Source: Candidatus Parvarchaeota archaeon
Lineage (GTDB): Archaea > Nanobdellota > Nanobdellia > JAFCGN01
NCBI GenBank assembly: GCA_017609105.1
Contig: JAFCEQ010000003.1
Coordinates: 1-47,459 of the forward strand
DNA: 47,459 nucleotides
Direction of reading: 5' to 3'
Shown here: positions 27,527 to 47,459 of the stretch, piece by piece
Position numbering within the stretch: position 1 is the stretch's first letter
Layout of the letters: each line of letters begins with the position of its first letter
Notes under the pieces: generated by a model
Told to the model about the DNA's origin: nothing
The model's input: the letters and a program-made list of their open reading frames with translations, nothing else
Databases searched by the model: none
Program-made: the position numbers and the translations under genes

Positions 27527-28192
27527 ATGAGAAATAAAATAATTCCTCATGGGAAAGCAGAAAAATTTGAATTAAAAAAAGGAGATAAAATAAAAATCCT
27601 CATTCCTTTTGGAGGCCAAGTTTCTGACATAGTCTTTGAAGGATTTAATCAAAGCATTACAAGAGAAAAACTTACTTATTCAAGACACGTAAGTGGAACA
27701 ACAACGCCTATGGCAAAAACATTAGAACAAGGTGAATGCTTATATAATTGCGAAGGCAAGCCAATTCTTCTTCTTAAAGAAAATAATGTTTCAGAATTAA
27801 GCATTAATGATTATTTTAAAATTCTTCCTGACCATATTGATAAAAACAGGTTATTTCTTCAAGAACCCCTGATTAAGCCAACTCATGACTTGCTTTGGCC
27901 TGGATGTTCTTCTGAAATATACAAAAATGAAAAAAAAGGTTGCAGGGAATTACTTTCAGAAGTTCTTGACCTTGAATTAAAAAACCTTCCATCTGTTTGT
28001 TCATTATTCATGACACTTGGTTCAAAAAACAATATTATTCCAAGTCCTGTTCAAAAAAATGATAATGTTGTTTTTGAAGCATTAGAAGATGTGCTCTTAG
28101 GAGTAACTTCTTGCCCTGATGATTGGTTTTGCAATTTAAATCCTTCAGAAGTAAATATAATCTATTATAAGAATGGGTCCGCTGGGATTTGA
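27527..28192 (+). CDS. DUF1989 (urea carboxylase-associated) family protein
   Basis: GGQVSD, HDLLWPGC, GC, V+FEALEDVLLGVTSCP motifs. Confidence 0.75.
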   Translation: MRNKIIPHGKAEKFELKKGDKIKILIPFGGQVSDIVFEGFNQSITREKLTYSRHVSGTTTPMAKTLEQGECLYNCEGKPILLLKENNVSELSINDYFKILPDHIDKNRLFLQEPLIKPTHDLLWPGCSSEIYKNEKKGCRELLSEVLDLELKNLPSVCSLFMTLGSKNNIIPSPVQKNDNVVFEALEDVLLGVTSCPDDWFCNLNPSEVNIIYYKNGSAGI

Positions 28193-28279
28193 ACCCAGGG
28201 CCTCCGGCTCACTTAGTTGAGCCTTGTTCGGAACTCGGACATATAAGACCGGCGCTCCACCAGACTAAGCTACGGACCC
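28174..28279 (-). tRNA. tRNA-Ile(UAU) with 32-nt intron at 37/38 (intron 28210-28241)
   Basis: Acceptor GGGTCCG/CGGACCC, loop CT-TAT-A|intron|A, T-loop TTCAAAT. BHB central helix CTTA/TAAG. Confidence 0.9.
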
Positions 28280-28322
28280 AAAAAACATGTTAATAAAATA
28301 AATAATTAATTTTTAAATCTAA

Positions 28323-28736: not shown

Positions 28737-28894
28737 GAAATAAATAAAATCAAAACTATATTATTAATTTAACTAAAATTAATTATAATTAAAAAATAAA
28801 ATTAAAAAAATAAATTATGAATAATTTACAAAAAATAATTGGGTATTGCAATCCTAATTATTTTTTTTTGATTTGAAGAAATTTCAAAGTTATG

Positions 28895-29021
28895 TGCTCC
28901 CGCCGGGATTTGAACCCGGGTCGCCGGCTTTCTTTCATTGTTAAACCTTCAAGTGTGTCTGAACGCCATGAAGGTTCTGATGTCGAAAGGCCGGAATCCT
29001 TGGCCGCTAGACTACGGGAGC
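28895..29021 (-). tRNA. tRNA-Glu(UUC) with 54-nt intron at 37/38 (intron 28930-28983)
   Basis: Acceptor GCTCCCG/CGGGAGC, stem CCGGC/GCCGG, CT-TTC-G|intron|A. BHB helix CTTT/AAAG. Confidence 0.92.
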
Positions 29022-42111: not shown

Positions 42112-43941
42112 TTAAATTTTTTTTATCTTAACATTAATTATTTTTAAATTAGGTTCTTTACTGAAAGGGTCAAGTGATAATGGGATTAATTTATTCACAA
42201 AAGCATTATTAAAATGGTATGGCACAACAATAACTCCTTTTCTCACCTTATTATTCTCTTCTACTGGAACTCTTATTCTTCCTTTTCTTGAAAAAATTTC
42301 AATTTCATCTCCATCAACTAAATTCTCTTTTTTTAAATCAAAAGGATTCATATATGCTTTTGCTTTATTAATTATTTTTTTAAGAGAATTACAATTCAAA
42401 GTTAATTCAGAAGTTGTGAAGTGATAAGGCAGTCTTTTTGTTGTAAGCAAATATGGAAATTCCTTATTAACCTCGTGTTCAACAGCAGTGTATTCAACAG
42501 GAACAAGTTTTTTCCATTTTCTTTTTTTTTCAGCAAAAAATCCTTCAATCTTGAATAAATCTTTAAAATTAATTTTTTTATAAGCAGGAATTGTACTTAT
42601 TATTTCCTTAGTTATTTCTTCAACATTTTTATAATCTTTACCGCCAAACTCTTTAAATAATTCAGCAATTATTCTCCATTTCTCCTTTCCATACAATGGA
42701 TTAAGAACTTTATTAAAAATTCTCACTCTTCTTTCTGCATTAGTCATTGTTCCTTCTTCCTCAAAATGCGTTGCGCAAGGAAGAACAACATCAGCGAATT
42801 TAAGCATCCTTGACTTATGAGAACCAATATAAATAAGAAATATTTCTTTTAGTTTTTTATGAACAGTATTTAATTCAGGCAAGGATTTCGCAATATTTGA
42901 TTCTAAAACAATAATTGTTCTTAATTCATCTTCAAAAAGCATTTCAAGAAAAGTTTTGTTTCTTGGAAGAACTCCTACGTCCCCGCATCCTTGAATATTA
43001 TTTTTTCCTCTCATAGGAATTAAAAAACCATTTTTTAATATTGAAAGATTACTCACTCCTAAAGCATTTTTTGTTCCAAGAGTGTGTTGAACTAAAGCCA
43101 TACCAAAAAGAAAAGAAGGTTTTTTTGATTCACATAATATTTCTGAAATTTTTTTTAATTTCTTCTTATCAGCTCTGCAATTCTTTGATACAATGTTTAA
43201 TTCATAATTTTTTAATGAAAGAACATATTTTCTAAAATCCTTATTTTTTTCTAATTTTTTATCAAACTTTTTTGATTTAATAATCTCTTTCGCTAAATAA
43301 TTAAGTATTGGTAAGAACTCGCCTACATCAATAGAGAGGCATTCATCAACAAAATCTGAAGTAAAATTAAAACTATCATAAATTAAAACAATTTTCGCAC
43401 CTTTCTCTTTTGCTTTAATTATTCTTTCAAAAAAAGTTGGGTAATCTGATTTTGTGTCAGAACCAAAAATGAATATTGCGTCTGATTTTTCAATATCCCC
43501 TATTCTTGATTCCATTGCTTCAATCCCGTACGCTATTTTCATTGCTTTAACACTGCTCGCATGGCATAAAGAAGCGCTTGAATCCTTTTCTGATTTTAAC
43601 ATCTCCGCTAACTTAACTAATAAATAGTTCGCTTCATTGCTTGCACTTCCAGAACCATAAAAACACAGATTTTCTGAAGAAGTTTCTTTTATTCTTTCAA
43701 TAATAATAGAATATGCTTTCCCCCAAGTTGTTGGAACTAATTTACCTTTTTTTCTTATAAGAGGTGTTTTTATTCTATTTTTTGATAAAAACTCATAAGC
43801 TTTTAAACCCTTAATGCATGGCTTGCCTTTGCTCACTGGATCTTCTTTTATGGGAGAAGCACTAATTATTTTGTTATTTTTTACAAAAAAATTTAATTTG
43901 CAACCGCAACCGCAGAAAGGACAAATAGTCGTTCTTCTCAT
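42112..43941 (-). CDS. Molybdopterin oxidoreductase, formate dehydrogenase alpha subunit-like
   Basis: CPFCGCGC...CIKG Fe-S motif, LCH, RGKNNIQG, ADVVLP, GTMTNAERR, C-terminal molydop-binding domain. Confidence 0.88.
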   Translation of the reverse strand: MRRTTICPFCGCGCKLNFFVKNNKIISASPIKEDPVSKGKPCIKGLKAYEFLSKNRIKTPLIRKKGKLVPTTWGKAYSIIIERIKETSSENLCFYGSGSASNEANYLLVKLAEMLKSEKDSSASLCHASSVKAMKIAYGIEAMESRIGDIEKSDAIFIFGSDTKSDYPTFFERIIKAKEKGAKIVLIYDSFNFTSDFVDECLSIDVGEFLPILNYLAKEIIKSKKFDKKLEKNKDFRKYVLSLKNYELNIVSKNCRADKKKLKKISEILCESKKPSFLFGMALVQHTLGTKNALGVSNLSILKNGFLIPMRGKNNIQGCGDVGVLPRNKTFLEMLFEDELRTIIVLESNIAKSLPELNTVHKKLKEIFLIYIGSHKSRMLKFADVVLPCATHFEEEGTMTNAERRVRIFNKVLNPLYGKEKWRIIAELFKEFGGKDYKNVEEITKEIISTIPAYKKINFKDLFKIEGFFAEKKRKWKKLVPVEYTAVEHEVNKEFPYLLTTKRLPYHFTTSELTLNCNSLKKIINKAKAYMNPFDLKKENLVDGDEIEIFSRKGRIRVPVEENNKVRKGVIVVPYHFNNAFVNKLIPLSLDPFSKEPNLKIINVKIKKI

Positions 43942-44934: not shown

Positions 44935-45016
44935 ATATTATATTTAAATTTAGTGTATATAAATTATTTTTGATTAAGAATTTTTTTTTAAATTTCAATA
45001 AAAAAAAACATTGTCT

Positions 45017-45033
45017 CGAAAATTATTTAAGCA
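45017..45033 (+). promoter_or_regulatory. BRE/TATA promoter of tRNA-Leu
   Basis: CGAAAA-TTATTTAAGCA about 30 nt upstream of the tRNA 5' end. Confidence 0.55.
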
Positions 45034-45056: not shown

Positions 45057-45140
45057 GCAGGGGTGCCGGAGCGGTCAAACGGGGTAGGCTAAGGACCTAC
45101 TGGCTTAGTGCCTGCGCGAGTTCGAATCTCGTCCCCTGCA
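45057..45140 (+). tRNA. tRNA-Leu(AAG)
   Basis: GCAGGGG/CCCCTGC-A acceptor, GTAGG-CT-AAG-GA-CCTAC arm, long variable arm, TTCGAAT T-loop. Confidence 0.9.
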
Positions 45141-45199
45141 TTTCTTAGAAACTAAATATTATTAAAATTATATTTCTTAAAATATTTAGGTGATTTTTT

Positions 45200-47142: not shown

Positions 47143-47459
47143 ACTCCAGTTTATCCTGCTGGAGGTCACCGCTATCTGGTTGGGGATTAGACATGCAAGG
47201 CAAAAGGGTCGGGCTTGCCTGACTTCTTGCCGAACGGCTCAGTAACACGTAGACAACCTGCCCTATGGTAAGGGATAACCTCGGGAAACTGAGGATAATA
47301 CCTTATAGAGAGGAGAGTCTGGAATGTTCTCCTTTCAAAAGATTTTTTATCGCCATAGGATGGGTCTGCGGCAGATTAGGCTGTTGGTGGTGTAACGGAC
47401 CACCAAACCTATGATCTGTACGGGCTCTGAGAGGAGTGGCCCGGAGAAGGGCACTGAGA
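47143..47459 (+). rRNA. rrs: 16S rRNA, 5' part (truncated by window end)
   Basis: ACTCCAGTTTATCCTGCTGGA start, CATGCAAG, ACGGCTCAGTAACACGT, GGGATAACCTCGGGAAACTGAGG, CACTGAGA. Sharp rise in GC content. Confidence 0.97.

Follow-up and report, generated by a model that had tools for sequence, protein, structure and literature searches.

Can an archaeal leucine tRNA carry adenosine as the first base of its anticodon, and if it does, how is that base read? The question is raised by a tRNA gene in a contig of Candidatus Parvarchaeota archaeon that we analysed at its full length of 47,459 nt and refer to here as the window. The window is contig C12 of its genome, G000, an assembly of 688 kb in 49 contigs that is 92% complete and has a G+C content of about 29–30%. 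Archaea are said to lack both tRNA genes with ANN anticodons and the A34 deaminase, in the passages of PMC8007984 and PMC11066159 that treat the matter. A preliminary description of the window, made from its sequence alone, had called this absence almost universal; the generalisation does stand in those passages, but it has one precedent against it, reported for Ferroplasma acidarmanus in the portion of PMC6000648 considered here.

A class II tRNA-Leu gene with an AAG anticodon

The gene occupies positions 45057–45140 of the forward strand and encodes a class II tRNA of 84 nt. ARAGORN calls tRNA-Leu(aag) with exactly these ends, and in a 601-base search the Rfam tRNA model RF00005 matches it over its full length (model positions 1–71) with 51.5 bits, against a gathering score of 29 (E = 3.5e-10). 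The anticodon, A34-A35-G36, lies at 45091–45093 according to the sequence itself, ARAGORN (anticodon at position 35 of the gene) and the Rfam alignment of the loop; the preliminary description, which had read the loop as CT-AAG-GA, was exact in both coordinates and anticodon. As read from the sequence, the loop C32-U33-AAG-G37-A38 spans 45089–45095, with C32 at 45089, U33 at 45090, G37 at 45094 and A38 at 45095.

The predicted cloverleaf has an acceptor stem of 7 bp, a D stem of 3 bp, an anticodon stem of 5 bp closing the 7-nt loop, and a T stem of 5 bp with a GTTCGAATC T-loop. The variable arm is 15 nt long and contains a 3-bp stem, A73 is the last encoded position, and the gene has neither an intron nor an encoded CCA. 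In archaea the elements of leucine identity are the long variable arm and A73, both outside the anticodon. The gene has each of them, in a cloverleaf that scores above the gathering threshold, as befits a class II leucine acceptor. A whole-genome Rfam search again returned it. When the whole 47-kb window was scanned at the gathering threshold with default filters, three other tRNAs were listed and this one was not. Its absence from that list is a filter miss and not a weak match; default Rfam filters can lose class II tRNAs.

The gene is conserved and looks expressed

A second genome of the same genus, G001, carries a tRNA-Leu(AAG) gene that is 98% identical and lies at a syntenic locus, with 89% column identity in the flanks. 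The two genes differ at only two positions, and these form a compensatory change of the 27:43 pair in the anticodon stem from G-C to A-U. Upstream of the gene, a 17-nt promoter-like block, CTCGAAAATTATTTAAG (BRE/TATA-like; 45015–45031, forward strand), covers positions −42 to −26 from the tRNA 5′ end and is invariant in the alignment of G000 with G001 amid diverged flanks. Judged by eye and uncounted, many other tRNA genes among the 40 in G000 are preceded, at about the same distance, by comparable A-rich or TTTAAA-like blocks, and from its sequence the CTCGAAAATTATTTAAG block appears to be a BRE/TATA promoter. Directly 3′ of the tRNA, a T-rich run, TTTCTT (45141–45146, forward strand), is conserved in G001 and is likely to be an archaeal terminator. 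The neighbours are ordinary chromosomal genes, encoding a molybdopterin oxidoreductase, a PhoU/TrkA-C protein and MgtE-domain proteins, and the 16S rRNA gene starts at 47143, 2 kb downstream. The oxidoreductase (42112–43941, reverse strand; 609 aa, with Fe4S4, molybdopterin and dinucleotide-binding domains) is encoded in a genome of less than 0.7 Mb.

From relatives and public records we assembled 131 Leu-AAG genes, representing 120 distinct sequences. For each of 23 helix pairs, 116–120 of up to 120 distinct sequences have a standard pair, double changes are abundant, and the pairs of the variable arm are kept in 116–120 of the 120. U33, A34, A35, G36 and G37 are invariant throughout (120/120), and A73 is found in 119. 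The window's gene thus looks intact and expressed. The preliminary description had seen an intact tRNA with a promoter, and this view is upheld by the compensatory stem change and by the conserved promoter-like block and T-run, with functions suggested by their sequences.

Might faulty sequencing or assembly account for AAG, or might the gene be a pseudogene or a mobile extra copy? G000 is a single metagenome-type assembly in 49 contigs, which leaves some room for such an origin. The same anticodon is present, however, with syntenic flanks, in the independent assembly of the same genus, and since independent assemblies carry the same base, a base-call error is untenable. The AAG pattern described below recurs in 107 of 301 genomes of the class, and 118 of the 120 public records listed as matches to it are typed as tRNA-Leu(aag) by ARAGORN. 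An extra copy is equally at odds with the lack of a GAG copy in G000 and with the ordinary chromosomal neighbours. Sequencing error and pseudogene were ruled out on the strength of the compensatory change in G001 and of the 120 homologues with paired helices, and we give explanations of this kind practically no credence.

tRNA-Leu(AAG) in place of tRNA-Leu(GAG)

ARAGORN, run with introns allowed, finds 40 tRNAs in G000. Its leucine set consists of AAG, CAG, UAA and UAG, and AAG is the only ANN anticodon among the 40. No Leu-GAG was found in this 92% complete genome, either by ARAGORN with introns or by a whole-genome Rfam scan; a gene may sit in the part that is missing. The Rfam scan returned 39 hits, comprising 38 of the ARAGORN genes and one 68-nt hit (C45:5157–5224, forward strand; 40.9 bits) to which ARAGORN assigns no tRNA even at relaxed settings. 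We considered a hidden Leu-GAG missed by ARAGORN and rejected it: this 68-nt hit is all that Rfam adds, and it is too short for a class II tRNA. The GAG tRNAs of a genome of the same order, G003, and of others are 87–89% identical to the window's tRNA-Leu(AAG). Because Leu-GAG is missing from G000 and the two anticodons exclude each other in relatives (see below), replacement of GAG by AAG is the right description. The preliminary description, which had asked whether a full inventory would lack Leu-GAG and had posited a GAG-to-AAG shift, is borne out on both points. In a search for synteny between AAG and GAG loci, matches to the GAG loci of G005, G015 and G030 were short and weak, and only the G001 locus was clearly syntenic.

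Introns are present in several other tRNA genes of G000, and without its intron option ARAGORN misses both intron-containing tRNAs of the window. One of these is a tRNA-Ile(UAU) (28173–28280, reverse strand; ARAGORN anticodon tat, 32-nt intron; Rfam tRNA, 58.8 bits), already reported in the preliminary description and called by both programs. Further introns are found in tRNA-Glu(UUC) (54 nt), Tyr (47), Arg-CCU (90), Met (34), Ser-CGA (13) and Thr-CGU (12), at window positions 28894–29021 (reverse strand) and on contigs C39, C44, C6, C4 and C3. Because G000 has only two CAT tRNAs and no match to the TiaS_FLD domain (PF08489), which is matched in archaeal control genomes, AUA is probably read by UAU and not by an agmatidine-modified CAU. 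Reading of AUA by UAU is reported for N. equitans and Korarchaeum in the relevant part of PMC6000648. An intron-containing Ile(UAU) is also present in G010 (L244 19218–19321). In another relative, G021, ARAGORN reports a 'tRNA-Stop(tta)' with a 13-nt intron (L258 3402–3491 on contig C15, reverse strand), for which a wrongly placed intron or a suppressor-like tRNA may be the explanation. Four short contigs of G000 have a higher G+C content (C11, 46%; C7, 36%; C10 and C16, 35% each) than the 26–33% found elsewhere and may be mis-binned; C7 carries a second tRNA-Ala(GGC).

AAG and GAG across the class

We typed 41 related genomes by fetching every full-length BLAST match to the window's tRNA. AAG was present in 13 and GAG in 10; the remaining 18 yielded neither, and the two never occurred together. 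A sequence pattern combining D-loop, anticodon loop and T-loop was then applied to 301 genomes of the class. Its counts are lower bounds, as it misses tRNAs with other D- or T-loops, including four that had been typed by hand (G003, G019, G032 and G040). With AAG the pattern occurs in 107 of the 301 genomes, 66 of 205 high-quality genomes and 48 of 177 genera; with GAG it occurs in 54 of the 301. The two sets do not overlap, and a reversed-pattern control gave no hits in the 301 genomes.

By the same pattern, AAG fills entire families (f17, 39/47; f19, 34/40; f30, 9/11; f1, 2/2), and GAG fills family f29 (7/8). Both states are found within family f4, where genus g41 has AAG and genera g5 and g33 have GAG, and within genus g45, where G054 has GAG and G124 has AAG. 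The switch has therefore happened repeatedly, an argument that rests on taxonomy and not on a tRNA tree, and repeated switches are most simply explained by a point mutation that needs no new enzyme. In a tree of 48 CUN-type leucine tRNAs (79 columns, loop columns dropped), 23 of the 44 inner branches are open, and AAG tRNAs often cluster with a UAG or CAG tRNA from the same genome. This is so in G035, G020, G033 and G010 (L019, L029, L076 and L005 with their TAG or CAG partners), and the AAG and UAG tRNAs of G035 differ nowhere but in the anticodon loop. Such pairs suggest that CUN isoacceptors undergo anticodon shifts or gene conversion, in which case some AAG tRNAs may have an origin other than GAG.

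When one genome per prokaryotic species was scanned, at least 120 records matched the AAG pattern. Among the matches listed, the titles name Woesearchaeota, Pacearchaeota, Nanoarchaeota or Nanoarchaeia and Parvarchaeota (including the ARMAN-5 scaffold GG745548.1), as well as two Aenigmatarchaeota, some entries given as 'archaeon' or 'uncultured archaeon', and a few as 'bacterium'. Relatives' genomes, which the preliminary description had singled out as informative, thus hold the same AAG gene, in G001, in 13 of the 41 typed and in 107 of 301 by pattern. Its further suggestion of a lineage-specific decoding system does not hold, in that Leu-AAG is not peculiar to this lineage and is spread over many families of the class.

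A second A34 tRNA, tRNA-Thr(AGT), is present in seven genomes of family f4 (G024, G005, G075, G067, G083, G059 and G049) and in G008 of family f7; the loci are L003 1655–1726 (forward strand) in G024, and L282–L284, L286, L287, L289 and L307. G000 has Thr-GGT and not Thr-AGT. A TadA-superfamily hit occurs in six of the eight tRNA-Thr(AGT) genomes, and the one examined, in G024, is a yeast-type cytosine deaminase.

The anticodon loop also differs between the two states. At position 38, the 55 GAG matches (tallied by eye) have G in 42, U in 10 and C in 3, whereas the 120 distinct AAG tRNAs have C in 65, A in 40, G in 11 and U in 4; at position 32 the latter have C in 39 and U in 81. The window's tRNA has C32 and A38. 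The loop may have been retuned to its new first base, in a contrast that shared ancestry inflates.

Leucine codons in G000

In 495 ORFs of at least 150 aa from G000 (168,174 codons) we counted 4421 CTT, 663 CTC, 594 CTA, 293 CTG, 8731 TTA and 2110 TTG codons. CTT, which the preliminary description had judged by eye to be very common, is the dominant CTN codon: it makes up 74% of CTN and 26% of all leucine codons and occurs 26 times per 1000 codons. Reassignment of CTT or CTC was considered and rejected, as both align to leucine in homologues. In homologues from GAG genomes, 47% of 853 CTT sites align to leucine, as do 48% of TTA and 47% of TTG sites, and CTC aligns to leucine at 38% of 130 sites. 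CTT and CTC still mean leucine in G000.

CTC accounts for 13% of CTC plus CTT in G000 and for 12% in G001. In the G34-served boxes of G000 the share of C is 4.5% for GTC, 5.0% for GCC, 5.9% for CCC, 8.9% for ACC and 16% for TCC. CTC is thus not avoided in G000, its share exceeding that of C in most of these boxes. If A34 read U alone, CTC should be depressed, whereas I34 would read it well, so the unreduced level counts against an unmodified A34. The wider comparison, of 13 AAG with 10 GAG genomes, points the other way. The median CTC share is 0.175 in AAG and 0.353 in GAG genomes, and it is also lower relative to other codon boxes (p = 0.024), in genomes that are related and not independent and of which G000 was counted whole and the relatives in samples of 2,500–13,000 codons. 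The AAG genomes have the lower median G+C content (0.349 vs 0.397). G000 and G001 run opposite to the CTC trend of the other AAG genomes.

Search for an A34 deaminase

The only gene of G000 with a CDA fold (PF00383) encodes a cytidine deaminase. It lies within C1:6239–6661 on the reverse strand (L048 1390–1812), at C1:6380–6661; the product has a YAPYSNYxVGA motif and scores 93.9 bits against NF004064, the cut-off of which is 74. It has an HAE zinc motif in an otherwise tetrameric-type Cdd sequence, and falls below the cut-off of TIGR01354 while exceeding that of NF004064; Cdd proteins of the tetrameric type normally have a CAE zinc motif. The 92% complete genome has no match to PF14437 (MafB19-type), to the TadA model NF008113 at E values up to 10, or to PF02137 (ADAT1/ADAR), and controls in known genomes do match. 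CDA-fold and TadA profile searches of G000 found no gene resembling ADAT2/3 either. There is no further need for TadA in G000, since it has tRNA-Arg(GCG) and not ACG.

Across the class, TadA-superfamily hits (E ≤ 1e-8) occur in 44 of the 301 genomes, none of them above the model's cut-off. They are found in 18 of 107 AAG genomes, 15 of 54 GAG genomes and 11 of 140 others. Thus 89 AAG genomes are without one, and the frequency in GAG genomes is at least as high; in family f19 the hit is absent from all 40 genomes, 34 of which have AAG. Across the 301 genomes a TadA-like deaminase does not co-occur with the A34 tRNA. PF00383 has no match at all in 6 of the 13 typed AAG genomes. From the 41 genomes we translated all 30 PF00383 loci and classified 12. 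As candidates for an I34-forming enzyme these CDA-fold proteins were rejected, being cytidine deaminases, dCMP-deaminase-like proteins or small TadA-superfamily nucleoside deaminases that score 50–94 bits against a TadA cut-off of 150. A deaminase of family f4 (in G024) was likewise rejected as a TadA, with 146 bits to the yeast-type cytosine deaminase PDB 1ysb and 85 to a TadA. In G036 the small deaminase could be a TadA, a guanine deaminase or a guanosine deaminase.

No known A34 deaminase explains the Leu-AAG trait, and the absence of homologues of known families is compatible with what may be a deaminase of a new family. The preliminary description had held that archaea almost universally lack an A34 deaminase and had recommended a search for one. 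G000 proves to be without a TadA, ADAT2/3 or ADAT1-type match, and both of the readings put forward there, unmodified A34 and an unrecognised enzyme making I34, remain live.

How A34 may be read

We think it probable that G34 was replaced by an A34 that is left unmodified, in a functional tRNA-Leu serving CUY codons. The usual archaeal tRNA-Leu(GAG) would have given way to tRNA-Leu(AAG) in the lineage without any new enzyme. Charging would be unaffected by the change from G34 to A34, because leucine identity lies in the variable arm and A73 and not in the anticodon. Unmodified A34 would read CUU, the dominant CUN codon of a genome with 29–30% G+C, by Watson-Crick A:U pairing in place of G:U wobble. 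For CUC, which is rarer, decoding would be less efficient and would rely on A34:C pairing or on tRNA-Leu(UAG), and CUG would be covered by tRNA-Leu(CAG). G000 presents what such a decoder should have, namely an A34 tRNA in a four-codon box, no G34 isoacceptor and no cognate deaminase that we could find. The repeated switches, the lack of a co-distributed deaminase and the AT-rich setting fit an unmodified A34.

Two other accounts have to be weighed against an unmodified A34. A34 might be deaminated to inosine by an enzyme unrelated to TadA/ADAT or unrecognisably diverged from it, giving a tRNA-Leu(IAG) that reads CUU, CUC and some CUA, like those of eukaryotes and certain lactic acid bacteria, and we hold this to be possible but doubtful. 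Archaea make m1I57, and we know of no enzyme identified as forming it there, so tRNA adenosine deaminases that have escaped recognition do exist. Inosine would also suit the normal or higher levels of CTC in G000 and G001 despite loss of the G34 tRNA. Some AAG genomes, such as G036, carry the small deaminase of ambiguous type, and almost all A34 tRNAs studied elsewhere become I34, in the account that PMC11066159 gives in the part used here. Leu-AAG and Thr-AGT, moreover, appear together in bacteria, linked to TadA (PMC8007984 and PMC8266599, in the parts concerned), and the same two anticodons are met in this archaeal class. Against a deaminase stand the searches: G000 is without TadA, MafB19-type or ADAT1/ADAR-type matches and has a cytidine deaminase as its only CDA-fold gene, TadA-like hits are missing from most AAG genomes and at least as frequent in GAG genomes, and the f4 protein that co-occurs with Thr-AGT is a yeast-type cytosine deaminase. 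Switches repeated within genera and families would, in addition, require the enzyme to be there beforehand, without a substrate.

It is also conceivable, though we find it quite unlikely, that AT mutation pressure and drift, acting in a reduced genome, produced the G-to-A change with almost no selective effect. Most CUN decoding would then fall to tRNA-Leu(UAG), by four-way wobble, and to CAG, with AAG a minor helper under weak selection whose A34 might carry some other modification. AAG genomes are indeed more AT-rich than GAG genomes, and tRNA-Leu(UAG) is kept in G000 and in most of the typed AAG genomes. As G000 shows no shortage of CTC, this codon can be read by something else, and the frequent nearest relationship between CUN isoacceptors of one genome, as with AAG and UAG in G035, suggests that anticodons shift easily. 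Weak selection is hard to square, however, with the retention of AAG in whole families (f17, f19 and f30), with a structure strictly conserved through compensatory changes and a conserved promoter block, or with the correlation of loop positions 32 and 38 with position 34. As the main CUN codon, at 26 per 1000, CUU would be a heavy load for a dispensable tRNA.

Either state of the base would matter beyond this locus. That a large radiation of ultrasmall archaea (DPANN, Nanoarchaeia-type) uses an unrecognised deaminase family to make inosine from A34 in tRNA-Leu, and in some families also in tRNA-Thr, is in our judgement unlikely; if true, this would be the first wobble-inosine system in Archaea, and archaea would have a wobble deaminase still to be discovered. 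The less radical case, which is more likely and which we favour, is that a whole clade makes stable use of an A34 wobble base that is truly unmodified; it too would be new for the domain. This would amount to a large natural experiment, in which the near-universal avoidance of unmodified A34 could be studied in sister taxa that differ only in G34 versus A34. In either case the rule that archaea have no ANN tRNAs fails in about one-third of the sampled genomes of one class and not in one odd genome, and AAG and GAG are strictly alternative states with repeated switches between them. Annotation pipelines and codon-adaptation models that assume the rule will misjudge these genomes.

Comparison with known systems

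The comparisons that follow draw on parts of the papers cited, and what is said of each system holds within those parts. The closest archaeal counterpart is that of Ferroplasma acidarmanus fer1, which has a tRNA-Leu(AAG) and no Leu-GAG in its genome, with GAG in close relatives (PMC6000648); its authors explain AAG by a G-to-A change at position 34 of a pre-existing GAG tRNA. G000 is alike in having an archaeal tRNA-Leu with AAG, no GAG, and close relatives with GAG in a highly similar tRNA. The same portion of PMC6000648 covers 167 archaeal genomes, with N. equitans the only member of Nanoarchaeota, and treats AAG as a single species-specific event, whereas here 107 of 301 genomes in one class have it, and it fills entire families. 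In full-text searches of the literature we found no description of A34 or Leu-AAG tRNAs in DPANN archaea.

Outside the archaea, Leuconostocaceae and other Lactobacillales have a tRNA-Leu(AAG), modified to IAG by TadA, together with tRNA-Thr(AGU) (PMC8007984, PMC13249217, PMC8266599). They resemble the present case in that AAG replaces GAG in the CUN box, in the pairing of Leu-AAG with Thr-AGT, which recurs here in relatives, and in a tie to leucine codon usage. They differ in already having TadA for tRNA-Arg(ACG), whereas G000 has tRNA-Arg(GCG) and no TadA homologue was found in it. The eukaryotic tRNA-Leu(IAG) is similar in being encoded with AAG in genomes that lack the GAG isoacceptor, but it needs the heterodimeric ADAT2/ADAT3, and no ADAT2- or TadA-like gene was found in G000.

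As a model for how the window's tRNA works, the most likely candidates are the tRNA-Thr(AGU) of Mycoplasma and the yeast mitochondrial tRNA-Arg(ACG), both with unmodified A34 (PMC11066159, which also reports, in the part used, that orthogonal A34 tRNAs read mainly U-ending codons). What they would have in common with G000 is a reduced, AT-rich genome and an A34 tRNA in a four-codon box that escapes deamination, a state demonstrated in Mycoplasma and yeast mitochondria and presumed in G000. Those systems are bacterial or organellar, concern other amino acids and work with a minimal tRNA set, whereas in G000 the UAG and CAG isoacceptors coexist with AAG. The gene described here is a further member of a rare kind, and its spread through a clade without a known deaminase contradicts the textbook generalisation on archaea.
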